From Escherichia phage JS10, in the sequence record EU863409: DNA of 64,000 nucleotides, one strand, 5' to 3'. Every line of letters starts with the position of its first letter. Positions within the stretch are counted from its first letter, which is position 1. A model generated the notes under the pieces. The model did not search any database. It worked only from the letters and a program-made list of their open reading frames with translations, and was not told the DNA's origin. Made by a program: the position numbers and the translations under genes. Of this stretch, positions 3,133 through 49,684 are shown in pieces.

Positions 3133-3546
3133 TTATTTCATTTTGGCGAGGCAGATTTCATTGGCTTCCCATTGAGCTTGCTTAATAATAGCTTTGGATA
3201 CAGGAACCTTTTGACCATAAGTTTTTGACGTTGAGAGAACAATATATTTGTTTGCCTCATTATGCCAACCTAGTGATTTTTCACCATGACTACCTTTAAC
3301 CACAGCTGACACCTCAACAGAGCAACCACCATCAGAAATCTTGGTTTCTACAATCCATTCATTTCTCTCGGCAGCTTCAATTTCCGATCTCCTTTTTTCT
3401 TCATACATGGCGGCCCAATCAGTTTTTGCCAAGCTGAAAGTAAGAGCTTTCTCTAATTCTTTGGCAGCTTTTTGTTGTTCAGGCGTTAATGAATTGTACA
3501 ACTCTTGCATTTCTTTATCTTCGATATTCATTATGCTCTCCTTCAC
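3133..3546 (-). CDS. hypothetical protein
   Basis: 137-aa ORF with upstream early-type promoter. Confidence 0.45.
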
Positions 3547-3566
3547 TCCGTTGTTTTGATAGGTCT

Positions 3567-3595
3567 ATAGTATCATATTCTACGAAAGAGTAAAC
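3567..3595 (-). promoter_or_regulatory. early-type promoter GTTTAC-N17-TACTAT with conserved downstream element
   Basis: Minus strand GTTTAC...TACTATAGACCTATCAAAAC; copy of a recurring motif. Confidence 0.45.
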
Positions 3596-3619
3596 ATCTT
3601 TTTTAAACTTTTAGAAACA

Positions 3620-3646
3620 AAAAAGGCCCAACCTTTCGGAAGGGCC
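3620..3646 (-). terminator. rho-independent terminator, repeated element copy 1
   Basis: GGCCCAACCTTTCGGAAGGGCC hairpin followed by U-run on minus strand; 29-bp identical to copies at 4242-4269 and 51444-51471. Confidence 0.55.
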
Positions 3647-3651
3647 TCGAA

Positions 3652-4206
3652 TCAGTTCTTGTAGAACCGGAATGGGTTCACGTGGAAGGCTAACATAGCT
3701 TTAGGGATTTTACGAGACAAAAGGCTCTTAAGCTTCCAGCCACAGTAAACGCGAAGGTAAAATGTGATTCCGCCGACCTTAAGATAAGGAACTGAAGCAA
3801 ATACACCCCAGGCATCATCATTCCACATCCACAACCAACCATGGTGGGCTTTATCAGGAGAACCTGATTCTACGTCAGGATTACCACGATAATGGAATTC
3901 CGAGCTACAATCACGGCCTAGTTTATGATAAGCAAAGTTATAAGCTTTATTTCGCCATAGCCAAGCTACTCTCTGGAGATAAACACCGCCAGGCATTTTC
4001 CTGATTTTAGCCCAACGTTTAATATGACCTTTATCGCCGTCAATTGGATTATCGTATGTCATCATCCAATCAAAACCATATGGCAATTTACCAGTCTTTT
4101 TATTATGAAAAGGAACCACAAAAGGCGCAAGGATAACGGCTAGAACCATAGAGATAAAATCTAGTGGGACCAACAGAATCCAACTCAAATATTTTAAAAG
4201 TTTCAT
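3652..4206 (-). CDS. hypothetical membrane-anchored protein
   Basis: 184 aa with N-terminal hydrophobic segment; minus-strand TATAAATA 27 bp upstream. Confidence 0.5.
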   Translation of the reverse strand: MKLLKYLSWILLVPLDFISMVLAVILAPFVVPFHNKKTGKLPYGFDWMMTYDNPIDGDKGHIKRWAKIRKMPGGVYLQRVAWLWRNKAYNFAYHKLGRDCSSEFHYRGNPDVESGSPDKAHHGWLWMWNDDAWGVFASVPYLKVGGITFYLRVYCGWKLKSLLSRKIPKAMLAFHVNPFRFYKN

Positions 4207-4232
4207 ATTATTTCCTAAGTTAGTTTACTGTA

Positions 4233-4240
4233 TATTTATA
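4233..4240 (-). promoter_or_regulatory. late promoter box TATAAATA
   Basis: Exact T4 late-promoter octamer on minus strand upstream of gene starting at 4206. Confidence 0.5.
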
Positions 4241-4241
4241 C

Positions 4242-4269
4242 AAAAAAGGCCCAACCTTTCGGAAGGGCC
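4242..4269 (-). terminator. rho-independent terminator, repeated element copy 2 (after tRNA cluster)
   Basis: Same hairpin GGCCCAACCTTTCGGAAGGGCC with 6-nt U-run on minus strand. Confidence 0.55.
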
Positions 4270-4439
4270 TTTAACCTAGGGTAGCCTTGTCGGGGTTCCA
4301 CCTGCTAGGCAAGTGTTCTGTGCGCCGTTTCAGCTGTGAGATAAGGGACTTTAAGAGGAACTCATGTACTCCTTAAAGTCGGGTCTTATTCAGGGAACTT
4401 CAGTCCGACGACTTACCGGTAGCGACCCGGTTTCTTGTT

Positions 4440-4515
4440 TGGTCGAGACAGTAGGGATCGAACCTACGACCTACGGTTTAGAAGACCGTTGCTCTTCCTT
4501 CTGAGCTATGCCTCG
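4440..4515 (-). tRNA. tRNA-Arg (anticodon TCT)
   Basis: Manual cloverleaf: acceptor CGAGGCA/TGTCTCG, D-stem GCTC/GAGC, anticodon stem ACGGT/ACCGT with loop CTTCTAA, T-stem GTAGG/CCTAC, T-loop TTCGATC, encoded CCA; 76 nt. Confidence 0.85.
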
Positions 4516-4519
4516 TATT

Positions 4520-4594
4520 TGGCGGACATGCATGGATTCGAACCATGGACCAATTGATTAACAGTCAACTGCTCTACCACTGAGCTACACATCC
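4520..4594 (-). tRNA. tRNA-Asn (anticodon GTT)
   Basis: Manual cloverleaf: D-stem GCTC/GAGC, anticodon loop CTGTTAA, T-stem CATGG/CCATG, T-loop TTCGAAT, 3-prime GCCA; 75 nt. Confidence 0.85.
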
Positions 4595-4598
4595 AAAT

Positions 4599-4672
4599 TG
4601 GTGGCCCTGGGTGGAATCGAACCACCATCCAGCGATTATGAGTCGCTCGCTTGACCGTCCAGCTACAGGGCC
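4599..4672 (-). tRNA. tRNA-Met or tRNA-Ile2 (anticodon CAT)
   Basis: Manual cloverleaf: acceptor GGCCCTG/CAGGGCC, anticodon stem AGCGA/TCGCT with loop CTCATAA, T-stem GGTGG/CCACC, T-loop TTCGATT, ACCA end; 74 nt. Confidence 0.8.
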
Positions 4673-4677
4673 TTAAT

Positions 4678-4950
4678 TTAAATTACAAATCCAGCAGGAG
4701 CATTATCATCTTTAGCCATGTGCTGAATTGTATGATAAGTCATTTCTTCAGGAGCAACCAGATAAGCCGCAGCATTAACTAGTGGAATTATTTTTGGTTT
4801 AGCGAATGTGCTATCGGCAATTGCCATAAAGGGCTCGCCGTCGGTCTCAACTTCGCCAAATTGACATTCATATGAAATAGAACAACGTTTAGTAGTTGTT
4901 GTCTTGGTTTCTGGGTCATAAAAAGCTAATTTTAATACTAACATAAACAC
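4678..4950 (-). CDS. hypothetical protein
   Basis: 90-aa ORF upstream of tRNA cluster. Confidence 0.4.
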   Translation of the reverse strand: MFMLVLKLAFYDPETKTTTTKRCSISYECQFGEVETDGEPFMAIADSTFAKPKIIPLVNAAAYLVAPEEMTYHTIQHMAKDDNAPAGFVI

Positions 4951-38469: not shown

Positions 38470-39285
38470 ATGCTTAAAGAACAACTGATTGCCGAAGCAC
38501 AGAATATTGATGCTTCCGTTGCTCTTGACAGTATTTTCGAATCAGTTAATATTTCTCCGGAAGCAAAAGAAACTTTCGGCACTGTATTCGAAGCTACCGT
38601 CAAGCAACACGCCGTTAAACTGGCTGAGTCTCATATCGCTAAAATCGCTGAAAAAGCGGAAGAAGAAGTTGAGAAAAATAAAGAAGAAGCTGAAGAAAAA
38701 GCTGATAAGAAAATCCAAGAAGCTGCCGGTCGTTTCCTTGACCACGTCGCTAAAGAATGGATGGCTGAAAACCAGCTGGCTGTTGATAAAGGTATTAAAG
38801 CCGAACTGTTCGAATCCATGTTGATGGGTATGAAAGAACTGTTTGTTGAACACAATGTGGTTGTTCCAGAAGAAGCAGTGGATGTTGTTGCTGAAATGGA
38901 AGAAGAACTCCAAGAGCAGAAAGATGAAACCGCTCGTCTGTTCGAAGAAGTTGGTAAGCGTGACGCATATATTAATTACGTACAGCGTGAAGTTGCGTTG
39001 ACTGAAGCAACTAAAGACCTGACTGAATCTCAGAAAGAAAAAGTTAGTTCTCTGGTAGAAGGCATGGATTATTCCGATGCATTTGGTAAAAAAATTGGCG
39101 CTATCGTTGAAATGGTTAAAGGCCAGACTGACGTTGAAAAACCAATCACCGAAGCCGCTATAAATAAAACTGAAGACGATGCTGCAGCACTGAATTATAT
39201 TTCGGAAGCAGTTGAAGAAAAAGGCACTAAGCCTACCCTGTCCTTCGCGGACCTGTCTGCAATCGCAGCATCTCGAATTTCTTAA
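38470..39285 (+). CDS. 22: gp22 prohead core scaffold protein
   Basis: 271 aa acidic helical protein (T4 about 269). Confidence 0.9.
   Translation: MLKEQLIAEAQNIDASVALDSIFESVNISPEAKETFGTVFEATVKQHAVKLAESHIAKIAEKAEEEVEKNKEEAEEKADKKIQEAAGRFLDHVAKEWMAENQLAVDKGIKAELFESMLMGMKELFVEHNVVVPEEAVDVVAEMEEELQEQKDETARLFEEVGKRDAYINYVQREVALTEATKDLTESQKEKVSSLVEGMDYSDAFGKKIGAIVEMVKGQTDVEKPITEAAINKTEDDAAALNYISEAVEEKGTKPTLSFADLSAIAASRIS
39159..39166 (+). promoter_or_regulatory. late promoter box TATAAATA (candidate gene 23 promoter inside gene 22)
   Basis: Exact octamer about 140 bp upstream of gp23 ATG; none closer. Confidence 0.4.
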
Positions 39286-39306
39286 TTTAATAAGGTTATA
39301 CAACAC

Positions 39307-40866
39307 ATGAAAAAGAATGCATTAGTTCAAAAATGGTCCGCTCTGCTGGAAAACGAAGCTCTTCCTGAAATCGTTGGTGCTTCTAAACAAGCTATCATCG
39401 CTAAAATTTTCGAAAACCAGGAACAAGACATCCTGACTGCCCCGGAATACCGTGACGAAAAAATCTCTGAAGCATTTGGTTCTTTCCTGACCGAAGCTGA
39501 AATCGGTGGTGACCACGGTTATGATGCTACCAATATCGCAGCTGGCCAGACCTCTGGTGCTGTAACTCAGATTGGGCCGGCAGTAATGGGTATGGTTCGT
39601 CGTGCTATTCCTCATCTGATTGCTTTTGATATTTGTGGTGTTCAGCCTCTGAATAACCCTACCGGCCAGGTATTTGCACTGCGTGCAGTATACGGTAAAG
39701 ACCCTATCGCTGCTGGCGCTAAAGAAGCTTTCCACCCGATGTATGCTCCGAATGCTATGTTCTCTGGTCAGGGCGCTGCTCAGACTTTTGAAGCACTGGC
39801 TGCAGGTAAAGTTCTGGAAGTTGGTAAAATTTATTCTCACTTCTTCGAAGCTACCGGTGCTGCACACTTCCAGGCTGTTGAAGCCGTAACCGTTGATGCT
39901 GCTGCTACTGATGCCGCTAAACTGGATGTTGCCGTAACCGCTCTGTTGGAAGCTGGTCAGCTGGCTGAATTGGCTGAAGGTATGGCTACTTCTATCGCTG
40001 AACTTCAGGAAGGCTTTAACGGTTCTCAGGATAACCCGTGGAACGAAATGGGCTTCCGTATCGATAAACAAGTTATCGAAGCTAAATCCCGTCAGCTGAA
40101 AGCAAGCTACTCCATCGAACTGGCACAGGACCTTCGTGCAGTACACGGTATGGATGCAGATGCTGAACTGTCCGGTATCCTTGCTACCGAAATTATGCTC
40201 GAAATCAACCGTGAAGTTATCGATTGGATTAACTACTCTGCACAGGTTGGTAAATCTGGTATGACCAACACCGTTGGCGCTAAAGCTGGTGTGTTTGACT
40301 TCCAGGACCCGATTGATATCCGTGGTGCTCGTTGGGCCGGTGAGAGCTTTAAAGCCCTTCTGTTCCAGATTGATAAAGAAGCAGCCGAAATCGCTCGTCA
40401 GACCGGTCGTGGTGCTGGTAACTTCATCATCGCTTCCCGTAACGTAGTTAACGTACTGGCTGCAGTTGATACTTCTGTAAGTTATGCAGCTCAAGGTCTG
40501 GGTCAAGGTTTCAACGTTGACACCACTAAAGCAGTATTTGCCGGTGTTCTTGGTGGTAAATATCGCGTTTACATCGACCAGTATGCCCGTGCTGATTACT
40601 TCACCATCGGTTATAAAGGTTCCAACGAAATGGACGCAGGTATCTACTACGCTCCTTACGTTGCACTTACCCCACTGCGCGGTTCCGATCCGAAGAACTT
40701 CCAGCCGGTAATGGGCTTCAAAACTCGTTACGGTATCGGTATTAACCCGTTCGCTGACCCGTCTGCACAGGCTCCTACCAAACGTATTCAGAGCGGTATG
40801 CCTGACATCGTTAACAGCCTCGGTCTGAATGGTTACTTCCGTCGCGTTTATGTTAAAGGTATCTAA
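39307..40866 (+). CDS. 23: gp23 major capsid protein
   Basis: 519 aa (T4 about 521); paralogous to downstream gp24 copies. Confidence 0.97.
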   Translation: MKKNALVQKWSALLENEALPEIVGASKQAIIAKIFENQEQDILTAPEYRDEKISEAFGSFLTEAEIGGDHGYDATNIAAGQTSGAVTQIGPAVMGMVRRAIPHLIAFDICGVQPLNNPTGQVFALRAVYGKDPIAAGAKEAFHPMYAPNAMFSGQGAAQTFEALAAGKVLEVGKIYSHFFEATGAAHFQAVEAVTVDAAATDAAKLDVAVTALLEAGQLAELAEGMATSIAELQEGFNGSQDNPWNEMGFRIDKQVIEAKSRQLKASYSIELAQDLRAVHGMDADAELSGILATEIMLEINREVIDWINYSAQVGKSGMTNTVGAKAGVFDFQDPIDIRGARWAGESFKALLFQIDKEAAEIARQTGRGAGNFIIASRNVVNVLAAVDTSVSYAAQGLGQGFNVDTTKAVFAGVLGGKYRVYIDQYARADYFTIGYKGSNEMDAGIYYAPYVALTPLRGSDPKNFQPVMGFKTRYGIGINPFADPSAQAPTKRIQSGMPDIVNSLGLNGYFRRVYVKGI

Positions 40867-40882
40867 TACCTAACCTTATTAT

Positions 40883-40900
40883 GGGAGACTTCGGTCTCCC
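40883..40900 (+). terminator. hairpin GGGAGAC-UUCG-GUCUCCC after gene 23
   Basis: Perfect 7-bp stem with UUCG loop then T-rich tail; also flanks stop of the minus-strand gene at 40916. Confidence 0.6.
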
Positions 40901-40915
40901 ATTCTTGTTTCTGTA

Positions 40916-41182
40916 CTATGCAATCTTAACTCGACGGTTGATGATATCACGGAAGTCAATACGATTTTCTTGGATTTTCAGCCAGTTACCAGATTTGTCT
41001 TTGGTGTGGGTAGAGTATTCACCGTTCCACCAGAAGTCGGTTTCATAAGCCAGAGCTTCGTATTTCTTAACCAATGCATTAACTGCATTACCGTTAGGAT
41101 TGGTACCAAATTTTTCTACCAGAGCTTTGATGTCTTTGTCAAGGTTAGAAAGCGTGGTACGGATAAAGTTTAATTTGTTCAT
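40916..41182 (-). CDS. hypothetical protein, antisense gene between 23 and 24
   Basis: ORF on opposite strand with own early-type promoter and AGGAG SD at Met 41182 (track ORF starts 41197). Confidence 0.5.
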   Translation of the reverse strand: MNKLNFIRTTLSNLDKDIKALVEKFGTNPNGNAVNALVKKYEALAYETDFWWNGEYSTHTKDKSGNWLKIQENRIDFRDIINRRVKIA

Positions 41183-41211
41183 TTTTAATCTCCTCATGTT
41201 TTGATAGGTCT

Positions 41212-41241
41212 ATAGTAACACGTGGGAACCTTGCTGTAAAC
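41212..41241 (-). promoter_or_regulatory. early-type promoter GTTTACA-N18-TACTAT with conserved downstream element
   Basis: Minus strand GTTTACA...TACTATAGACCTATCAAAAC immediately upstream of 40916-41182. Confidence 0.45.
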
Positions 41242-41247
41242 AACTTT

Positions 41248-41255
41248 TATAAATA
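41248..41255 (+). promoter_or_regulatory. late promoter box TATAAATA (gene 24)
   Basis: Exact octamer 29 bp upstream of gp24 ATG. Confidence 0.6.
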
Positions 41256-41283
41256 AACATATACCCTCAATAAGGAAAGCGCA

Positions 41284-42567
41284 ATGGCAAAGATTAACGA
41301 ATTACTGCGCGAGTCAACAACTACTACCAGCAACTCATTGGGTCGCCCTAATCTTGTTGCTTTGACCCGTGCTACCACTAAACTAATTTATCGCGATATC
41401 ATCGCTGAACAACGTACTAGTCAGCCTATTGCTGCATTGTATGGTGTCAAATATCTTACCCCTGATAATGAATTCAGTTTCCAAACTGGTGCTGTTTATG
41501 GTGGTGAAGTTGGTTCTAAAGACCGTGAAACTATCCCGGAACTCACAGATAAAGCCCAGGCGATTGCCAAGGGTGACTACTTTAAGTATCAGAATGTGGT
41601 TTATAAGGCTCTTCAAGCAAGCCCACTCGCATCCACTAGCGCTACAGGATTGGCCGATGCTCTTCAAGAAGGTTTGGTGTCATTAACATGTCGTCTGGTT
41701 CCTGATGCAGCCCATACCACTAAATTCGAAGCGAGTAATGTAGAAATCTCTGATGCTGTATTCCAGGTTAATAAATGGAATGCTCCTGTTAAGACCCGTA
41801 AATTGAAGACTGCTTTGACTGTAGAATTGGCACAGGATATGGAATCAAATGGCTTCGACGCCCCTGCATTCTTAGAAGACCTCCTGGCTACAGTAATGGC
41901 AGATGAAATTAATAAAGACGTTCTGCAATCTCTGATAACCGTATCTAAACGCTATAAAGTTACCGGTGTATCTGATAATGGCATCATCGATTTGACTTAT
42001 GATAGTGCTCCGGAATCTGCCCGTAAACTTTATGAAATTGTCTGTGAGATGAATTCTGAAATCCAGAAAACTACTTCTTATTCTGGTACGTTTGTTGTGG
42101 CTTCAAGTCGTGTGGCTGCAATGCTTGCAGGTTCTGGCTGGTTAAAACATAGACCTGAAGATAATAATTGGCTCCCGGAAACTGCCTATGGTTATTTGTT
42201 GAATGGATTACCACTGTTCTGTGACGTTAACAGCCCATTGGATTATGTTATCGTAGGTGTTAAAGAGAACTATGGTGGTAATGAAGTTGTCGGTTCTATT
42301 TTCTATGCCCCATATACAGAAGGCCTGGATTTAGACGACCCAGAACACGTTGGTGCTTATAAGGTTATTGTCGACCCGGATTCATTACAGCCTTCTATTT
42401 CTCTGATGGTTCGTTATGCACTTTCGGCTAACCCATACACCGTAGCTAAAGACGACAAAGAAGCTCGTATTATCGACGCAACCAATATGGATTTAATGGC
42501 GGGCCAGAGTAATATGTCTTATCTGCTTGGTGTTAAACTTCCAGCAATTATTTACGAGGCTGATTAA
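41284..42567 (+). CDS. 24: gp24 capsid vertex protein, copy A
   Basis: 427 aa (T4 about 427), gp23-like fold protein downstream of 23. Confidence 0.9.
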   Translation: MAKINELLRESTTTTSNSLGRPNLVALTRATTKLIYRDIIAEQRTSQPIAALYGVKYLTPDNEFSFQTGAVYGGEVGSKDRETIPELTDKAQAIAKGDYFKYQNVVYKALQASPLASTSATGLADALQEGLVSLTCRLVPDAAHTTKFEASNVEISDAVFQVNKWNAPVKTRKLKTALTVELAQDMESNGFDAPAFLEDLLATVMADEINKDVLQSLITVSKRYKVTGVSDNGIIDLTYDSAPESARKLYEIVCEMNSEIQKTTSYSGTFVVASSRVAAMLAGSGWLKHRPEDNNWLPETAYGYLLNGLPLFCDVNSPLDYVIVGVKENYGGNEVVGSIFYAPYTEGLDLDDPEHVGAYKVIVDPDSLQPSISLMVRYALSANPYTVAKDDKEARIIDATNMDLMAGQSNMSYLLGVKLPAIIYEAD

Positions 42568-43850
42568 TGTCTAAGATTATAGACCTAATTAAAGAATCCA
42601 CATTGACGGCTGCCAACTCGGTTGGCCGTCCTGCTCTTCTTTCATACACCCAAGCAACTAATAAACGAATCTTTAAAGCCCTAGTTGCTGAACAAAAAAC
42701 AAGCCAACCTGTTGCCGCTCTGTACGGGGTTCGTGTACTTAATCCTGACGACAAAATGACTTATCTTGGTGGCGCTACATTTGCAGGCCAGATTGGTATG
42801 TCGGAACGTGAAAATATTCCTGAATTTACCGATTCGTCTACAGCTTATGCAGCCGGCGATATGTTCCAGTTTGAAAGTGTAGTGTTTAAAGTTCTAGAAG
42901 CATCTCCTTTCGCCGGAACCACAGAAACCGACCTCGGTGAAGTTATTTCTGAAGCAGTGGCCGCTGGGCATATTCGTATGGTATCAGATGCTGCTATTAC
43001 TTCTAAATTTGAACAAGGCCACCCTGAAATTGCTGAAGCAGGCTTCCGTATTGACAAATGGCAATCTGAAGTTAAATCACGTAAACTGAAAACTTCATTG
43101 ACAGTCGAATTGGCCCAAGACCTAGAATCAAACGGGTTTAATGCTCCTAATTTCGTTGAAAATCTGCTAGGCATTCAAATGGCAGAAGAAATTAATAAGG
43201 ACGTATTACAGTCATTAATTACGGTGAGTTCTCGTTTTAAAGTCCAAGGTGTTTCTGAAAAGGGCGTATTAGACCTTACCAACCCACGTTACGATAATGC
43301 CCAGGACCGTGCTCGTACATTATATTATTACATGTGTGAGATGAACTCTGCCGTCCAACGTCAAACTTCTTTCGCCGGGACTTATGCAGTAGCTAGTTCT
43401 CGTTGTGCTGCTATTCTCGCCGCTTCCGGTTGGGTTGAGAAAAAGGAAGACCAAGACGAATTGGCTTATGGTGTATTAAAGAATGGTCTGCCTCTTTATG
43501 CCGATATGAATAGTCCATGTGATTATGTTATTGTTGGTGTAAATGCTCAGATGGGTGAAGGACAGACGGTCGCATCTTTATATTATGCGCCTTATACGGA
43601 AGGTTTGGATGTGGTTGATGAAGAAGGTGATACTTCAGTAGGTGAATTTAAGGTTATTGTTGACCCAGAAAGCTTACAACCTACAGTAGCATTGCTTGCT
43701 CGTTATGCATTGACTGCAAACCCTTATACCGTCGCTAAGGACGATAAAGAAGCCCGCATTATTGATGGCTCTGATATGGACAAAATGGCTAACCAAAGCC
43801 AGTTGAGTTCTTATCTTGGTGTAAAACTTCCTCCATTGGATAAAAACTAA
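42567..43850 (+). CDS. gp24 capsid vertex protein, copy B (diverged tandem paralog)
   Basis: 427 aa, roughly half identical to copy A by eye (shared LKTxLTVELAQD, EINKDVLQSLITVS, PYTVAKDDKEARIID). Confidence 0.9.
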   Translation: MSKIIDLIKESTLTAANSVGRPALLSYTQATNKRIFKALVAEQKTSQPVAALYGVRVLNPDDKMTYLGGATFAGQIGMSERENIPEFTDSSTAYAAGDMFQFESVVFKVLEASPFAGTTETDLGEVISEAVAAGHIRMVSDAAITSKFEQGHPEIAEAGFRIDKWQSEVKSRKLKTSLTVELAQDLESNGFNAPNFVENLLGIQMAEEINKDVLQSLITVSSRFKVQGVSEKGVLDLTNPRYDNAQDRARTLYYYMCEMNSAVQRQTSFAGTYAVASSRCAAILAASGWVEKKEDQDELAYGVLKNGLPLYADMNSPCDYVIVGVNAQMGEGQTVASLYYAPYTEGLDVVDEEGDTSVGEFKVIVDPESLQPTVALLARYALTANPYTVAKDDKEARIIDGSDMDKMANQSQLSSYLGVKLPPLDKN

Positions 43851-43877
43851 AAAGGGACCTCACGGTCCCTTTACTGT

Positions 43878-44885
43878 TTATTTGGATACTAGTTCAATCC
43901 ATACAGCTCGTAGCGTATCTTTAACGCACTCAACGAGCTGCTTTTTAACTTCAACAGGGTTTTCTGCATCGGTTAATTCTAATTCTTCACGGGCTGCCTC
44001 TTCCAAAATATCTTGGACCGTCAAGCCCATTACCTTTCCAAAATCTTTAGGTGTTACTTCACCAATCTTACTGATAACGTTATTGATACGGTTAACTGTC
44101 ACATAATCTGTGAATTGCCACATCAAGTCCATATCGTCTTGGGACAATACTACTGCAGCCTTAATAGGCTTATCAGATTTTTTCTTCTCGCTGAATTTAG
44201 AGTTCTTACATTTAATCGCTACACGATTTCCATTAGGAAGCCAGATTGGAACATCAGGTTTCAGTACAAAGCCTTCAGCCGTAAATACTTTACCTTCGAC
44301 CTTAGGAATAAAATCGGTTGAGTTAGCAATGGTTAAACCTGCATTATCCACTGCAAAATTGTAATCTGGGATAACAGAATCAAAATCATTCGGCAGTTTA
44401 ATAAGGTCTTCAAAGCTACCTGTGGCTAAGCACGGAGCAACCTTAAACTTATGGATAATACAGAAAGCTTCCATAAGGGTATCAGTTAAAACGGATTCGG
44501 TGCCATCTTCTTTAGTAACACGGATATCAAATACATAAAAGTCTTTATCGCCGTAATCCACATTCTTCTGGATACCCGTACCAGCGAACTCGCCATAAAT
44601 TTGGTACGACTGATAATTAATAGATTCGATTAGATGTTGAACAGATTTAATAGAATCAGCATAGTTCTTAAGTACAATTTCATAGCCATAGAAATCTTCG
44701 GCCGGGAGAATTGGGCCAGTGCGCTTGGCGCACGTGACTGCGTCACGTTCTATGATTAAACTAAAGTTGGTTCCATGAATCTTCTCACGTGCTACCCATT
44801 CACCACCAGTCAAACCATGGGTACGGAGTTTTTCGATAAACTTACTGTTGTAATGGTTTTCCAGACTGCTATATTTCTTGAACAT
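43878..44885 (-). CDS. rnlB: RNA ligase 2
   Basis: [20 protein letters not shown]...[14 protein letters not shown] and C-terminal region match recalled T4 Rnl2; start at Met 44885. Confidence 0.95.
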
Positions 44886-44886
44886 A

Positions 44887-45255
44887 TTATTTGCTTCCAT
44901 AATCAATTTTAACTAATTTACCTTTAAGGTAACCATAATTTGAAGGTTTACAATCAGACATATACATGCTTTCTACCAGAGTGTGGTGCCTAGCATGGTG
45001 TATTTCTGTTTTCCACAACCCTATATTAGTAACTTCTTTGGCCCTTGGCATAACTATAACAAGTCCTAACCAAGATTTCCATATAACAGGACACAAATAC
45101 GGGTCCTTCAATGATGAGAATTCATGTTCTGTTATATTGCAATAGAGTCCAGTTAAAAACAGTTTCCAACTATAGAAGCTTGGTATCTTAATGGCGTATC
45201 GTTTCGTCAGGAAGACCTGCCGGGTTGCACCATTTCTTTTTCTGATAAATGGCAT
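44887..45255 (-). CDS. hypothetical protein with protein-kinase-like motifs
   Basis: 122 aa; GATRQVF...YAIK, then DCKPSN and IDYG at kinase-like spacing; too short for a full kinase; tentative. Confidence 0.45.
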
Positions 45256-45370
45256 AAAACCACCATAATAAATATAATTAAATAGAAGAGCTAGTAATCT
45301 TCTGTCACCAAGCCAAATGGTTTAACGGAAGGACCTAGACCCATTATAACACACCTAAATTTAAAGCATA

Positions 45371-45580
45371 TTACTTTGAACTAGAACGCGCTTTGCGCCG
45401 AACCTTGTTGTTCAATCTTTTACGATAAACAACCTTTTCTTTTGATTTAAATTTCTCTTTGGCTTGTTCTACATCGACCCAAGCTTTAGCCATGTCCTTA
45501 GCAGTACCACCTAATTTTTTAGCAATTTCTATAAAATTTAGTCCAGATTCGTGTAAAAAATGTACTTTAACCTTATCCAT
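45371..45580 (-). CDS. small basic putative HTH DNA-binding protein
   Basis: Met at 45580 preferred over track start 45619; segment LNFIEIAKKLGGTAKDMAKAW resembles HTH; lysine/arginine-rich C-terminus. Confidence 0.4.
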   Translation of the reverse strand: MDKVKVHFLHESGLNFIEIAKKLGGTAKDMAKAWVDVEQAKEKFKSKEKVVYRKRLNNKVRRKARSSSK

Positions 45581-45650
45581 AACAATTCTCTTGTTGAGTT
45601 GGTAAAGCCATCTTAACATAGGATTTTTAACTTGTAAACAGGAGTATTAA

Positions 45651-46658
45651 ATGGCAGATTCTATTTTTGGTCATGACGGTCGAGGGACCTTTTCCGGTAT
45701 TGCTTTAAAGGAATCGGATACTGTTATCCCTTTTGAAAAAATTCTTACTAAAGAAAGTCTTATAAACCCGGCAAGATTGGTAGGGAGTAATTCGTATGGC
45801 TTAGGCTTGGTTAGTAAATCCGGAAGAGCTGAAGTTCTGGCCCATTTGGGGATAACCGAAGAAATGTTATCCCCTGGTATCCCTGGCCCTAAAGGTGAAA
45901 GCATTGTAGGACCGAGAGGCCCGGCTGGTCCTGTAGGCCCTGTGGGTCTAAATTGGAAAGGAACATGGAGTGCTGCAACAGCCTATGTTAAGGATGATGC
46001 AGTAGGGTACAATGGGGCTTCTTATTTTTGCGTTCAGGATTCTACCGGTAATAATCCTGCTGAAGAAAACAGCCTTTACTGGGCCTTATTGGCTTCTCAG
46101 GGTGCACAAGGCGAACAGGGTATCCCGGGTAAAGATGGTGAGCAGGGTCCGCAAGGTGTTCAAGGTCCTCCTGGGGTGGATGGGATTGATGGACTTGACG
46201 GAGCTACTGGCCCTCTAGGTCCTCAGGGTCCTCAAGGCGAACCTGGTAAAGATGGCACAGATTTGTTTTCATTCCATAAGTATACCAACGTTGCTGCTGG
46301 GTACGGTGAAATAAAAATACCTGGGGTCGCCAATACGGTTCTTAGAGTTAGATTGGTTAACAACCAAATAGAATACAGCATTTTAAGTAAAGGTGGGACT
46401 ACCCGATATTGTGATTATCACTTTGTTGCTCCTAGTGTTTCGGGTGGAACGGTTACTACCGGTGGCGGAACTAAGACTTTGTCTCCTACAGGCTCATTTG
46501 TTATAGTAAGTGCGGCATATAACGGGCTACGTCCTATTAATATAACCTTAAAGGAATGGGGTTCTAAAACAATTTCAGAAATAACAGTATTTCAACACGG
46601 GCGCAGTGTAGATTCTAATAAACCTATATTGGTTAAAATGGTTAGTTTCCCTTATTAA
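45651..46658 (+). CDS. collagen-like repeat protein with CBM5/12-like domain
   Basis: Two G-X-Y blocks flanking WSAATAYVKDDAVGYNGASYFCV...LYWALLA (chitin-binding type 3-like motif); C-terminal globular region. Confidence 0.75.
   Translation: MADSIFGHDGRGTFSGIALKESDTVIPFEKILTKESLINPARLVGSNSYGLGLVSKSGRAEVLAHLGITEEMLSPGIPGPKGESIVGPRGPAGPVGPVGLNWKGTWSAATAYVKDDAVGYNGASYFCVQDSTGNNPAEENSLYWALLASQGAQGEQGIPGKDGEQGPQGVQGPPGVDGIDGLDGATGPLGPQGPQGEPGKDGTDLFSFHKYTNVAAGYGEIKIPGVANTVLRVRLVNNQIEYSILSKGGTTRYCDYHFVAPSVSGGTVTTGGGTKTLSPTGSFVIVSAAYNGLRPINITLKEWGSKTISEITVFQHGRSVDSNKPILVKMVSFPY
46101..46256 (+). repeat. collagen G-X-Y triplet coding repeat
   Basis: About 17 consecutive GXY triplets. Confidence 0.8.
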
Positions 46659-46669
46659 TTGGAGGTAGC

Positions 46670-47530
46670 ATGTCTATACAAGTAAATGGACCTCATTATG
46701 AATTGGTTGGGAGAACGGTAACTCTTAGGGCTGTTTTATCTGAATCTTTAACTGACGCTGATATAAAATGGTACAAAAACGGTGTAAACGTTCCATTATT
46801 AGATAAAGAAGACCCGATGTATCTAAATCTTTGGGATGTAGGGTTTCCGGCTTCTGGGACCTATTATGCAATAGCAACCGATAAACTTACACAAGAGGTT
46901 TTTCAAAGCGACGATTTTGTTTTAGAAATAGGAATGGAGCCTAGAGATATAGTTATTTCCGTAGAAAATTTAGATGCTATCGTAAAGGCGGCCATAGGTC
47001 AAAAAGTTTCTTTACAACCTTTAATTTCTATGGGTGCCACGCCCTGGGCTGAAGTCGAGTGTGAATGGTGGAAATACGATAAAATGGTTTCAAATGTAAA
47101 GGATTTGGACGTTGATATAAATCCTTCTATGTACGGGACATATTCACTTAATGTTTCTGCTACCGCTGAAGGAGCCTATAATCCGTATCATGATATAGTT
47201 ACGGTAGATATCATGCCTTTAGATGGTATTTTACCAGAACCTGAAGTGTGTCCTTTTATATACTCGAATGATTTAAATCAATATTTGTCTTATCCTGGTG
47301 GAAGAAATAGGGCTCATATGTGGATAGGTTGGTGGGTATTGGATGAGATAAAAGGAGCCCTTGCTAAAGACCAGGATTGGGCTATCAATATAGAAGATAG
47401 CAATTTTAGGTATAAGTGTGAGCTCATGAAAGTGGCAGAACTTTTGTCACGATATCCTGATGTAGAAATACAGGAATCAAGAAATGGATACATTTTGAAT
47501 AGGAAGCACCTGACATTAAATGTCATATAA
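46670..47530 (+). CDS. Hoc-like Ig-domain protein (short paralog)
   Basis: Ig-like region (WYKNG...SGTYYAIATD) plus C-terminal about 70 aa similar to Hoc C-terminus (WIGWWVLDEI...YPDVEIQESRNGYIL). Confidence 0.7.
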   Translation: MSIQVNGPHYELVGRTVTLRAVLSESLTDADIKWYKNGVNVPLLDKEDPMYLNLWDVGFPASGTYYAIATDKLTQEVFQSDDFVLEIGMEPRDIVISVENLDAIVKAAIGQKVSLQPLISMGATPWAEVECEWWKYDKMVSNVKDLDVDINPSMYGTYSLNVSATAEGAYNPYHDIVTVDIMPLDGILPEPEVCPFIYSNDLNQYLSYPGGRNRAHMWIGWWVLDEIKGALAKDQDWAINIEDSNFRYKCELMKVAELLSRYPDVEIQESRNGYILNRKHLTLNVI

Positions 47531-47535
47531 CAAAA

Positions 47536-47562
47536 CGGGAGAGCGAAAGCTCTCCCGTTTTT
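47536..47562. terminator. bidirectional rho-independent terminator between convergent hoc-like genes
   Basis: CGGGAGAGC-gaaa-GCTCTCCCG, 9-bp stem, flanked by AAAA upstream and TTTTT downstream. Confidence 0.8.
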
Positions 47563-47574
47563 ATTTAGCCAAAA

Positions 47575-48984
47575 TTAGTAAAAATAAATTATACCTGTGT
47601 CAAGAGCCGAACGATGGATAATTCTTCCATTTCGTGATTCTTGTACATCAACCTCTGGATAATCCGCAACCATTTTTTGAAGAGTGTAGCGATGGAGATA
47701 ATAATTGCTATCTGGGTCATCAGTTTTCCAATCTTTACCTTCAAGTGTCATTTTCTGGATTTCATCCATAACCCACCAACCGGCCCAAATATACGCTGAA
47801 TTACGAACCGGCAGCGGATGGACGTAAGGTAGTTCGCCTTCCGGTTCAGGAGCAACTTTAGGCGTAATTGTTACATTACCAGATTTTTTGACAGTCACAG
47901 GATTATAGTCGGTAGCCGAAACCACAACAGAAACTTCAATAACCTGTGAACCTTCAGCACTTGTATCGACTACTAAAGTATCTGTGGTGCCGGCAACAGG
48001 TGAACCATCTTTCTTCCAAGAATATGCAAAAGTAGCACCAGCAGGCGCACCTGCTACGGTAGCTTTAAAAGAAGCTGGAGTTCCTTCCGGAGTATTAATA
48101 GAGGCCGGCGCTAAAGTAACAGAAACACCTGTCATGGTCTTTTTAGTAATTGTTACACTTCCGGTTTTGGTAACGGTTAAATCGTTATAATCCGTACCTT
48201 TTAGGACTACCGAAACTTCAATAGTGTAAGAACCTACTGTAGATGTATCAACAGCAAGGGTATTACTGCTTTCGCCCGGAATAATAGAACCATTTTTCTT
48301 CCAAGAATAAGTTGCATTTACGCCGGAAGGAGCGCCAACTACATCCGCTTTAAACTGTGCAGATGAGCCTTTCTCTGTACTAATTGAGGCTGGTGTTAAA
48401 GTAACGGAAGCACCTGATATAGTTTTCTTAACAAAAGTTACCGCAATACCTTTAGTAGCTGTAGCCGGGTCATATTCAGGGGCGGTAACAGTAACTTCAC
48501 AGTTCAACGTGTAATTTGCTTCTGCTGCTTCAGTTACAGTAATAGTTTTACCAGTTTGACCTGAAATTACAGTTGTATTACGTTTCCAAACATAAGCCAT
48601 TGTAGCGCCAGCAGGGACACCCGATACGTTAGCAGTAACAACTTGGGATTGACCGATTTCTTTAGAAACGGAAGTAGGGTCTAAGGTCAAAGAAAGAGCC
48701 CCAATGGTCTTATTAGCTACAGTAACTTCAAAAGTTTTTTCAGCTACCTCAGGTTCGCCTTCGGTCGGAGTAGAAGTTGCTACTACTTTTAAAACTTTCT
48801 TACCAGCTGGAGCCGCACCGGTATATCTCAAAACATTGGTGGCCTCTGGATTAGAAGCACCGTCAATGGTCCATACATATGTAACGGTTCCTTCTACAGC
48901 TGCACCTGTTGCGGTAGCAGTGTAGTTGGCGCTTTCGCCTATTTTAATAGACGCAGCGCCGGCTATACTTACAGTAAAAGCCAT
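47575..48984 (-). CDS. hoc: Hoc highly immunogenic outer capsid protein
   Basis: 469 aa: four tandem Ig-like modules of about 95 aa and C-terminal capsid-binding-like domain; position between rnlB and inh as in T4. Confidence 0.85.
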   Translation of the reverse strand: MAFTVSIAGAASIKIGESANYTATATGAAVEGTVTYVWTIDGASNPEATNVLRYTGAAPAGKKVLKVVATSTPTEGEPEVAEKTFEVTVANKTIGALSLTLDPTSVSKEIGQSQVVTANVSGVPAGATMAYVWKRNTTVISGQTGKTITVTEAAEANYTLNCEVTVTAPEYDPATATKGIAVTFVKKTISGASVTLTPASISTEKGSSAQFKADVVGAPSGVNATYSWKKNGSIIPGESSNTLAVDTSTVGSYTIEVSVVLKGTDYNDLTVTKTGSVTITKKTMTGVSVTLAPASINTPEGTPASFKATVAGAPAGATFAYSWKKDGSPVAGTTDTLVVDTSAEGSQVIEVSVVVSATDYNPVTVKKSGNVTITPKVAPEPEGELPYVHPLPVRNSAYIWAGWWVMDEIQKMTLEGKDWKTDDPDSNYYLHRYTLQKMVADYPEVDVQESRNGRIIHRSALDTGIIYFY

Positions 48985-48993
48985 ATTTTACCC

Positions 48994-49665
48994 TTATTTT
49001 AAAGTTACGAAAGATGAATTACGCGTTTCACGTACTAATACTGAACCATTACGATTAATGTAATAAATCAGACTGAATAGTGTTTGGTGGGCAGATGGGT
49101 GTTGGAAATCTTTAGGGCGTTCTTTCCAATCAGGGGTTTCGGTAATCCATTGATAAATCCACCAAGGCACGGTACAATACCCTGGGTTTTTACCAATGAG
49201 TAAAAGATTAGGGCTAAAGTTTTCAGGCAAAGAGAATACAGGTTTTTCCGATTCAATAACCTTGGTTACGGCCTCTTTGAATTTCTCTTCGACAAACGGA
49301 ACATCTTCTTCAATAATCTCTACCTTAGGAAGTTCGGCTACCTCAATAACTTCAACTACTGCTTCAGGGGCATCAAATAATAGGGTAGCTTCTTCTTTGG
49401 CAGGTTCCGCACCATCAACAAATTCGTTAGCGCCTGTGAGTTCGTCGGCGGCATCAATCAAATCAGAAATAGACAAACCTTCGGTTTCTGGAAGTGGTTC
49501 ATCAGCCAAGGCTTTAAGGCCTTCAGAGATATCGATAATCAAATTATCAAACGAACGGGTTTTCTTAAGTTTTAAACCGAATTGTTCGCCGTATTCGATT
49601 AACTTAGCTTTAGCTTCTTTTTTATCTTCGAGTGCACGAAGCTCTTCAATATATTGAGTATCCAT
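48994..49665 (-). CDS. inh: Inh-like protein (inhibitor of prohead protease), positional call
   Basis: 223 aa between hoc and uvsW as in T4; minus-strand late promoter upstream. Confidence 0.5.
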   Translation of the reverse strand: MDTQYIEELRALEDKKEAKAKLIEYGEQFGLKLKKTRSFDNLIIDISEGLKALADEPLPETEGLSISDLIDAADELTGANEFVDGAEPAKEEATLLFDAPEAVVEVIEVAELPKVEIIEEDVPFVEEKFKEAVTKVIESEKPVFSLPENFSPNLLLIGKNPGYCTVPWWIYQWITETPDWKERPKDFQHPSAHQTLFSLIYYINRNGSVLVRETRNSSFVTLK

Positions 49666-49684
49666 AATTAGTCTCTTGTTGGTG

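Follow-up and report, generated by a model that had tools for sequence, protein, structure and literature searches.

Two intact and diverged copies of the capsid vertex gene 24 lie side by side in the window, a 64,000-nucleotide stretch of the genome of Escherichia phage JS10 (EU863409). We consider it probable, at roughly 0.7, that these are the known JS98-like 24a/24b pair and that they would encode two functional, late-expressed vertex proteins from one operon. As a sequence feature the pair is ordinary, found in more than a hundred deposited genomes. What draws attention to it is that two vertex proteins have been selectively kept, and neither lost, although T4 needs one and can bypass it. 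The sequence-only reading of this DNA had described two adjacent ORFs of 427 aa each between 41284 and 43850, and the ORF list confirms both. The pair and its surroundings comprise the following features:

39307..40866, plus strand: gene 23, major capsid protein, 519 aa (Pfam PF07068, 409 bits; equivalent to gp23 in the JS98 annotation)
40881..40902, plus strand: terminator-like hairpin 3′ of gene 23 (promoter/terminator scan)
41248..41255, plus strand: T4-type late promoter motif TATAAATA, 28 nt upstream of the copy 1 ATG (motif search)
41284..42567, plus strand: copy 1 (24a; capsid vertex protein I), 427 aa (ORF list, PDB 1YUE, clade)
42556..42559, plus strand: Shine-Dalgarno-like GAGG of copy 2, 7 nt before its ATG
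42567..43850, plus strand: copy 2 (24b; capsid vertex protein II), 427 aa (ORF list, PDB 1YUE, clade)
43851..43872, no strand assigned: bidirectional terminator-like hairpin (promoter/terminator scan)
43878..44906, minus strand: rnlB, convergent (Pfam RNA_ligase and T4_Rnl2_C)

The head genes run in the order 20-67-68-21-22-23-(orf)-24a-24b-rnlB, which matches JS98 and also RB3, the latter with one gene 24. The hairpin at 40881..40902 sets gene 23 apart from the gene 24 unit, while the hairpin at 43851..43872 is common to the 24a-24b unit and the convergent rnlB; around the pair, hairpins are found before copy 1 and after copy 2 only. The motif TATAAATA, which we take to be the T4 late promoter consensus, has 19 matches in the whole window where 8.1 are expected, and the match at 41248 is the sole one within 39167-49684. 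With this one late-promoter motif serving 24a and 24b, copy 2 is left without a motif of its own. Copy 1 begins at its own ATG, with the Shine-Dalgarno-like sequence AAGGA upstream at 41272-41276. The GAGG of copy 2 is embedded in the final codons of copy 1 (Y-E-A-D), within a context, TACGAGGC, that is identical in CIP9, and the copy 1 stop codon and the copy 2 ATG overlap by one base (TAATG). The earlier description of both copies as intact, each with its own start, is thus upheld: an ATG and a Shine-Dalgarno-like sequence are present for each, and no disabling change is present in either. The single late-promoter motif, the overlapping TAATG junction and the single terminator identify 24a and 24b as one predicted operon.

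Both products have the sequence hallmarks of the T4 gp24 family. Copy 1 matches T4 gp24 (PDB 1YUE) over residues 1-424 with an E value of 2.9e-199 and copy 2 matches it over the same residues with an E value of 5.4e-152, and each copy matches Pfam PF07068 (Gp23/Gp24) over its full length, at 329.7 bits for copy 1 and 326.2 bits for copy 2, where the gathering cut-off is 24.4 bits. Since both copies align end to end with T4 gp24 (PDB 1YUE, 5VF3, 7VS5, 8GMO), an HK97-like fold with an insertion domain is predicted for each. Copy 1 shares ∼70% identity with gp24 of the T4-type Tequatrovirus RB3, and copy 2 is 57% identical to T4 gp24, with three small indels. Against each other the two copies are identical at 243 of 428 positions by BLASTP (57%; 77% positives; 501 bits), a similarity far above chance, and the impression of paralogues “roughly half identical” was therefore close. 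Identity between the copies is 70–77% over residues 166-225 and 370-427. The hexamer-forming paralogue of both copies is gp23, to which each is ∼27% identical (E values of 5e-18 and 2e-21).

The prohead protease gp21 cuts at the consensus motif (L/I)-x-E. In both copies residues 1-10 form a predicted propeptide, MAKINELLRE/S in copy 1 and MSKIIDLIKE/S in copy 2 (the slash marks the predicted cut), in which residues 8-10 are L-R-E in copy 1, as in T4, and I-K-E in copy 2. The alignment shows that (L/I)-x-E-S-T is kept in all orthologues. At the level of sequence, both copies thus carry a putative 10-residue propeptide ending in (L/I)-x-E, and like that of T4 gp24 its motif ends at Glu10; the T4 protein is described as losing 10 residues by cleavage (PMC9546572). 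The likeness to T4 extends to the locus between gene 23 and rnlB, although T4 has one gene 24 at this position and the window has two.

The window comes from a Dhakavirus genome (JS98-like, T4-type) that is 98% identical to Esco_phi_B-01. In JS98 (GenBank EF469154), the type species of Dhakavirus, the order of gene 23, a small reverse ORF, 24a, 24b and convergent rnlB is the same; protein identity is 94% between copy 1 and 24a and 91% between copy 2 and 24b, and the 4.7-kb region has 89.5% DNA identity. The two differ only at strain level, in that JS98 24a is 426 aa and the JS98 genes abut without overlap. The window is nearer to Esco_phi_B-01, NC-G, dhaeg, and CLB_P2, with 95–98% DNA identity, than to JS98. 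The pair is therefore already known, having been in the databases since the JS98 genome of 2007, and the novelty implied by the first description falls away: GenBank labels the two genes 24a/24b in JS98, 24(1)/24(2) in VR7, and vertex protein I/II in VR5, VR26, and CGG4-1, and a survey of relatives brings the total to 112 records.

These 112 are drawn from 1376 gp24-bearing phage records and belong to Dhakavirus, Gaprivervirus, Gelderlandvirus, Marfavirus, and part of Kanagawavirus. A tblastn search located 1493 gp24 places in the 1376 records, which implies that ∼117 records have a second gp24; a gene of the copy 2 clade is present in 112 records, with coverage of at least 80% in all 112. At least 80% identity to copy 1 is seen in 90 records, and likewise to copy 2 in 90. 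Records sampled outside the copy 2 clade had one gp24 place each by tblastn, and the earlier statement that T4 has a single gene 24 was accurate, with one copy in RB3, between gene 23 and rnlB, and one in each of T2 and RB69. Orthologous vertex protein I/II pairs with the same order and a tight junction occur in Gaprivervirus (VR5, VR7, VR26), Gelderlandvirus (CGG4-1, STP4-a, Melville), Marfavirus (R3_1, Marfa, F48), and Kanagawavirus CIP9, at 73–90% identity to the window pair. The junction is ATGA in Marfavirus, a 1-base overlap in Gelderlandvirus, and direct adjacency without overlap in JS98, VR26, and VR7, so that across all genera examined it is tight, from adjacent to a 4-base overlap. 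Both ORFs are intact in every genome examined, across five genera, and none of the 112 records has just one member of the pair. 24a and 24b strictly co-occur as intact neighbours joined by a tight junction.

The relationship between the copies was addressed with neighbour-joining trees on corrected identities, in which bootstrap replicates were rooted consistently. The 24a and 24b clades each have 100% bootstrap, with copy 1 of the window in the former and copy 2 in the latter; each is either the sister of its JS98 counterpart or nested with it. All bootstrap replicates (100%) unite copy 1 with the single gp24 proteins of T4, RB69, Moonvirus, and PEi20 and leave copy 2 outside, and in 0% of them do the two copies form a clade. 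The arrangement had first been read as a simple tandem duplication, and this grouping contradicts it. Quartet-informative sites divide ∼20 : 7 : 5 in favour of copy 1 with T4 and copy 2 with the outgroup, and positions 39, 208, 293, and 423 carry a derived state common to copy 1 and the T4 group, the other state being retained by copy 2 and 7-9 of the 9 outgroups. Copy 1 is, on these trees, the T4 gp24 orthologue, and the copy 2 lineage is placed as having split off before T4, RB69, Moonvirus, PEi20, and copy 1 diverged from one another; a more exact position near Jiaodavirus is only provisional, with 40% bootstrap. A long-branch artefact behind this placement was judged unlikely, because the quartet result still stands when the fourth taxon is Jiaodavirus, whose branch is short, copy 2 agrees with the outgroup at 18 of the 44 sites with fixed differences, and, since the radiation of the two-copy genera, dN for copy 2 has not been above that for copy 1. 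The copy 1 and copy 2 subtrees also branch in the same order, with Marfavirus outermost, followed by Gelderlandvirus and then Gaprivervirus with Dhakavirus, in a tree from which CIP9 was omitted.

A dN/dS comparison, a type of check proposed with the sequence-only reading, gives 0.035–0.147 between orthologues of copy 1 and 0.022–0.079 between orthologues of copy 2 (0.02–0.15 overall), with similar dN for the two. Strong purifying selection thus acts on both copies, which evolve at similar rates. Between copy 1 and copy 2, synonymous sites are saturated or nearly so, and the 59% nucleotide identity with a longest exact match of 12 nt argues against recent gene conversion. Gene conversion between the copies was accordingly ruled out, as was pseudogenisation of either copy, the latter by the intact ORFs and dN/dS. 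At first sight the tandem layout and equal length of the copies suggest a recent, lineage-specific duplication with one copy drifting to a pseudogene, a scenario refuted by ORFs that are intact in five genera, by the low dN/dS values and near-saturated synonymous sites, by the absence of bootstrap support for monophyly and by the conservation of the pair in 112 records. The trees and the distribution mark the pair as a long-established module of two co-inherited genes and not a recent duplicate.

Two origins can be proposed for this module. It may go back to an ancient duplication that the T4 line subsequently lost, or to unequal recombination involving a divergent T4-like phage, and from then on the two genes would have been passed on, and probably exchanged, together. 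The single gp24 of Kanagawavirus PEi20 is only 70% identical to copy 1 of CIP9, which implies that the module was swapped or lost at least once. An IMG/VR scan with copy 2 as the query recovered only the isolate genomes found before and distantly related single-copy phages, with none at 59%–78% identity, and did not reveal a copy 2-like gene in any phage with just one gp24.

Compared with all single-copy gp24 proteins sampled, copy 2 has replacements at their invariant residues. L27Y, L34R, Y57V, F66Y, and F341Y are fixed in copy 2 at positions that are invariant in all 9 outgroups, the T4 group and copy 1, with the exception that KM16, of the T4 group, has W at F66. E335Q is also fixed in copy 2, and here the invariance holds in 8 of the 9 outgroups. 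The copy 2 replacements fall in the N-terminal segment (residues 25-27 and 34) and in I-domain linker 1 (residues 65-68). In the description of T4 gp24, residues 26-29 pair with the I-domain linker of the adjacent subunit and residues 11-20 reach the neighbouring hexamer (PMC9546572); contacts were assigned here by setting the substitution positions against such published T4 descriptions.

Unique substitutions at universally conserved positions would be expected if the virion had one vertex protein only, presumably copy 1, and copy 2 had a non-virion role, such as that of an assembly factor or cap which subsequently leaves the particle, or of a decoy for a capsid-sensing host system. We find this improbable, since copy 2 has kept the complete gp24 architecture together with the protease-site motif and most of the conserved core, has a dN/dS just as low as copy 1, and would be co-produced with copy 1 from a structural late operon. 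The intact ORFs, retained protease motif and strong purifying selection fit the idea, raised in the sequence-only reading, of two vertex proteins in use. Both proteins are most likely incorporated in capsid vertices, where the prohead protease would cut each after Glu10 and both would be placed at the 11 non-portal vertices.

Within the reading of two vertex proteins, the copy 2-specific replacements lie in segments that contact neighbouring subunits in T4, and on this ground 24a and 24b most likely assemble into homopentamers of their own, without mixing. Such homopentamers might fill different vertex classes (apical, distal-ring and portal-proximal-ring). We offer only tentatively the idea of distinct homopentamers at different vertex symmetry classes, for example one at the apex and the other at the ten shoulder vertices, or one in the distal and the other in the portal-proximal ring. 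All 11 gp24 pentamers of T4 are described as alike (PMC9546572), so there is no obvious call for vertex-specific proteins. Additionally, T4 is reported to bypass gp24 via gp23 mutations (PMC10580926) and one gp24 suffices in most T4-like genera, which indicates that a second vertex protein is not structurally required.

The two copies might alternatively be redundant, each able to fill the 11 vertices alone and one of them better under some conditions, whether of temperature, of host chaperones or of a host defence that senses one capsid protein; heads would then be built from whichever copy is competent, or from a random mixture. The pair is carried by Gaprivervirus VR5, VR7, and VR20, which are described as low-temperature phages, and the copies are equal in length and architecture. 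T4, moreover, needs one gp24, which is itself described as bypassable (PMC10580926). The common promoter and predicted translational coupling speak against redundancy, since 24a and 24b would not be separately regulable at synthesis, and it is unexpected for truly redundant genes that 0 of 112 genomes have lost either copy. The changes fixed in copy 2 at otherwise invariant contact residues likewise point to specialisation rather than backup, and we regard redundancy as unlikely.

Specialised use of both proteins has a parallel in T4 itself, where gp23 and gp24 follow a like principle of tandem shell-gene duplicates specialising for lattice positions; the vertex protein gp24 is described as derived from the major capsid protein gp23 by an ancient duplication (PMC10580926). 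The hexamer and pentamer roles of gp23 and gp24 are experimentally established, whereas for 24a and 24b any difference in position or function is hypothetical. In the literature covered, a full-text search found no virion proteomics, cryo-EM or structure of any two-copy phage, and no discussion of the 24a/24b pair. If homopentamers specific to vertex classes do form, these would be the first tailed phages known with position-specific penton proteins and would provide a handle on how a prolate capsid tells its vertices apart in assembly. The pair bears on whether capsid vertices can be chemically non-equivalent. Several two-copy phages are also phage-therapy candidates, which gives capsid stability a practical interest.

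Two adjacent gp24 genes lie downstream of the major capsid protein gene in the window:

41284..42567 (+), copy 1 (24a), ORF of 427 aa
42567..43850 (+), copy 2 (24b), ORF of 427 aa

The sequence-only reading had proposed two adjacent 427-aa gp24 paralogues here, roughly half identical and both intact, and this observation is confirmed at exactly these coordinates. When aligned, the two proteins share 57% identity (243/428; 77% positives, 501 bits), and the 519-aa protein encoded just upstream (39307..40866) is ~27% identical to each. The Gp23/Gp24 family PF07068 is matched over the full length of both copies, with 330 bits for copy 1 and 326 bits for copy 2 (cut-off, 24.4 bits), and the T4 gp24 sequences of crystal and cryo-EM structures (1YUE, 5VF3, 7VS5 and 8GMO) align end to end with both (E-value 2.9e-199 with copy 1, 5.4e-152 with copy 2). 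Neither ORF contains a frameshift or internal stop, and no disabling change was seen in either copy on careful alignment.

The dN/dS comparison that the earlier reading had called for leads to the same picture. Nei-Gojobori dN/dS between orthologues (five genomes, four genera) spans 0.035-0.147 in copy 1 and 0.022-0.079 in copy 2; the non-synonymous distance from the window is 0.219 (copy 1) and 0.165 (copy 2) to Marfavirus, and 0.096 and 0.123, respectively, to Gelderlandvirus. From these low ratios and similar distances, it follows that both copies are under strong purifying selection and that copy 2 is not evolving faster. The proposal that copy 2 has a role outside the virion is weakened by this equally strong selection, and by the full gp24 architecture that copy 2 keeps. 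Between the two copies, dN is ~0.37 and synonymous sites are saturated or nearly so. Their DNA is 59% identical with a longest exact match of 12 nt, which rules out recent gene conversion; copy-deleting homologous recombination between 24a and 24b would likewise find little substrate.

The gp24 pair is real, but at the level of annotation it is already known. Over a 4.7-kb region around it, identity is 98.3% to Escherichia phage Esco_phi_B-01, 94-97.6% to NC-G, dhaeg, CLB_P2, Bp7, WG01 and QL01, and 89.5% to the Dhakavirus type member, JS98; this genus is well sampled, and the window is an ordinary representative of it. The JS98 record, whose genome paper dates from 2007 according to the reference list of another paper, names the genes “24a” and “24b”, each labelled “gp24 head vertex protein”. 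The pair is called “24(1)” and “24(2)” in VR7, “capsid vertex protein I/II” in VR5 and VR26, and “head vertex protein I/II” in CGG4-1, so the duplication is a known, annotated feature. In Klebsiella phage R3_1 (OR138018.1, Marfavirus), copy 2 at 3498..4766 is labelled “hypothetical protein” with an annotated start (3564) that is too late; the real ATG at 3498 overlaps the copy 1 stop (ATGA) and gives a full-length 422-aa gp24 paralogue.

A tblastn survey run with each copy as query, another of the checks proposed, covered 50,697 phage records and found a gp24 gene at 1493 places in 1376 records, and hence a second copy in ~117 records. A cut-off of E ≤ 1e-185 isolated the copy 2 clade, which comprises 112 records, all 112 with query coverage of at least 80%. 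The pair is carried by Dhakavirus and Gaprivervirus (hosts E. coli, Salmonella and Yersinia), by Gelderlandvirus (S16-like phages of Salmonella), by Marfavirus (on Klebsiella), and by phages of Enterobacter and Kosakonia, among them CIP9 (assigned to Kanagawavirus). At an identity of 80% or more, copy 1 and copy 2 each match 90 records, and none of the genomes surveyed carries 24a or 24b alone. Sampled records outside the copy 2 clade have one gp24 place each. A single gene is found in Tequatrovirus, Mosigvirus, Moonvirus, Jiaodavirus, Tegunavirus, Winklervirus, Krischvirus, Slopekvirus, Biquartavirus, Lazarusvirus, Gualtarvirus and the Kanagawavirus PEi20.

Copy 1 is closer to T4-type gp24 (70% identity) and PEi20 (69%) than to Jiaodavirus (64%) or to copy 2 (57%), while copy 2 is 64% identical to Jiaodavirus, 57% to both T4-type gp24 and copy 1, and 55% to PEi20. 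In neighbour-joining trees with 300 consistently rooted bootstraps, each copy forms a clade (100% for both), copy 1 joins T4, RB69, Moonvirus and PEi20 (the T4 group) to the exclusion of copy 2 in 100%, and monophyly of copy 1 with copy 2 receives 0%. Quartet-informative sites divide ~20:7:5 in favour of pairing copy 1 with the T4 group and copy 2 with the outgroup, a preference that held with every pair and outgroup tried, including the short-branched Jiaodavirus. Of 44 sites fixed within each copy clade yet different between them, 18 have in copy 2 the state favoured by nine outgroups; at positions 39, 208, 293 and 423 among these, copy 1 and the T4 group share a derived state. Such outgroup-like sites would be hard to explain by long-branch attraction. 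On these comparisons 24a/24b is not a recent duplication, and a decaying recent duplicate is refuted by the 0% monophyly together with the intact ORFs and strong purifying selection.

In the first tree, before CIP9 was added, the copy 1 and copy 2 subtrees branch alike, with Marfavirus outermost, then Gelderlandvirus, then Gaprivervirus with Dhakavirus, which indicates that the pair has been co-inherited since one origin. Adding CIP9 changes the basal order because its copy 2 falls, with weak support, beside that of Marfavirus. Two histories would fit: a duplication before the T4/JS98 split, followed by loss of copy 2 on the way to T4, RB69, Moonvirus and PEi20, or capture of a divergent gp24 next to the existing gene through unequal recombination during co-infection by T4-like phages. 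No single-copy lineage with a copy 2-like gene turned up in an IMG/VR scan. Within Kanagawavirus, CIP9 has the pair and PEi20 one gp24; CIP9 copy 1 has 85% identity to window copy 1 and only 70% to PEi20 gp24. This contrast within one genus indicates that the module is open to exchange or loss.

Signals around the pair are as follows:

40881-40902, terminator-like hairpin after gene 23
41248-41255 (+), late-promoter motif TATAAATA, 28 nt before the copy 1 ATG
42556-42559 (+), copy 2 Shine-Dalgarno sequence GAGG, within the final codons of copy 1
43851-43872, bidirectional terminator-like hairpin after copy 2, common to the convergent rnlB

The motif TATAAATA, the T4 late promoter consensus, is enriched across the window (19 matches against 8.1 expected) and occurs only here between 39167 and 49684. 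Copy 1 has the Shine-Dalgarno sequence AAGGA. The copy 2 ATG overlaps the copy 1 stop codon (TAATG), and the terminator scan found no + strand hairpin between the copies. This tight junction is conserved across the two-copy genera compared, as an ATGA overlap in Marfavirus R3_1, a 1-base overlap in Gelderlandvirus, adjacent genes in JS98, VR26 and VR7, and a 1-nt gap in CIP9. The single late motif, the tight junction and the confinement of hairpins to the flanks make the copies one late operon, in which they are probably translationally coupled. Such an arrangement would argue against separate regulation. This co-expression weakens the idea of redundancy or conditional use of the two copies, as does the finding that neither copy has been lost in any of 112 genomes.

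Residues 8-10 keep (L/I)-x-E in both copies, copy 1 having LRE and copy 2 IKE, and S-T comes next; in T4 gp24, the prohead protease is described as removing the first 10 residues (PMC9546572). The copies are least similar at residues ~61-135 (37-50% identity), which comprise I-domain linker 1 and the surface-exposed insertion domain, and also at residues 268-297, while the spine-helix/P-domain (166-225) and C-terminal third are 67-77% identical. Relative to copy 1 (T4 numbering), copy 2 has two 3-residue insertions, after position 239 and near 354, and lacks four residues near 295-298; the insertion near 354 falls inside loop 348-359, which is reported as disordered in T4 heads (PMC9546572). 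Copy 2 has fixed L27Y, L34R, Y57V, F66Y and F341Y at sites invariant in the nine outgroups, the T4 group and copy 1, save for a W at position 66 in one T4-group member, KM16. It has also fixed E335Q, where 8 of 9 outgroups have the copy 1 state, and V25L, A26S, S65T and T68G. In expanded T4 heads, gp24 residues 26-29 are described as forming a β-interaction with an I-domain linker of the adjacent subunit, and residues 11-20 as extending onto the neighbouring hexamer (PMC9546572). Changes in both contact segments suggest co-adapted subunit interfaces in copy 2, from which we infer that 24a and 24b would form separate homopentamers rather than mixed ones.

The best-supported reading is that both copies would be late structural proteins that gp21 cleaves and that are built into capsid vertices, with copy 1 as the conventional gp24 and copy 2 as a specialised second penton. 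The non-portal vertices of a prolate head fall into three symmetry classes (1 apical, 5 distal and 5 proximal), so position-specific use of 24a and 24b is conceivable. In T4, the 11 gp24 pentamers are described as being without conformational differences (PMC9546572). The T4 capsid is reported to resist acid, heat and proteases more with gp24 than in bypass mutants with gp23 vertices (PMC10580926), and we speculate by analogy that the second vertex protein may be a further capsid-stability adaptation. The remaining interest lies in the function of an old, strictly co-inherited and co-expressed pair with contact-residue changes in copy 2.

Several neighbouring genes also merit description:

40916..41197 (-), 93-aa ORF between genes 23 and 24, phrog_6003, equivalent of JS98 orf173c
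44887..45255 (-), 122-aa ORF overlapping the rnlB start
45651..46658 (+), collagen-like protein of 335 aa, Gly-X-Y repeats, Pfam Collagen match at E 1.2e-10
46670..47530 (+), 286-aa Hoc-like protein (phrog_1149, E 3.7e-44)
47575..48984 (-), 469-aa Hoc-like protein with Ig-like domains (phrog_1149, E 8.4e-120)

The slot between genes 23 and 24 varies among relatives. In dhaeg, dhabil and CLB_P2 the region is matched as two pieces with 94% covered, which suggests that these phages lack the 93-aa ORF. A homing endonuclease is annotated in this region in UP19, IME08 and CGG4-1; it is SegD in the latter two, placed between genes 23 and 24 in CGG4-1. The 122-aa ORF has no Pfam match, and its slot holds other small genes in other genera, such as 24.2 in T4/RB3 and VR7. 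The collagen-like protein, which has a weak CBM_5_12 match, sits between rnlB/24.3 and the Hoc-like genes, and the record of VR7 lists a homologue, ORF196w, under the name of collagen triple-helix repeat protein. The two Hoc-like head-decoration genes lie on opposite strands, and their products share the C-terminal motif WxGWWVxDEI...ESRNG; given this and the two phrog_1149 matches, the outer capsid protein, too, seems to be present in this phage as two paralogues.
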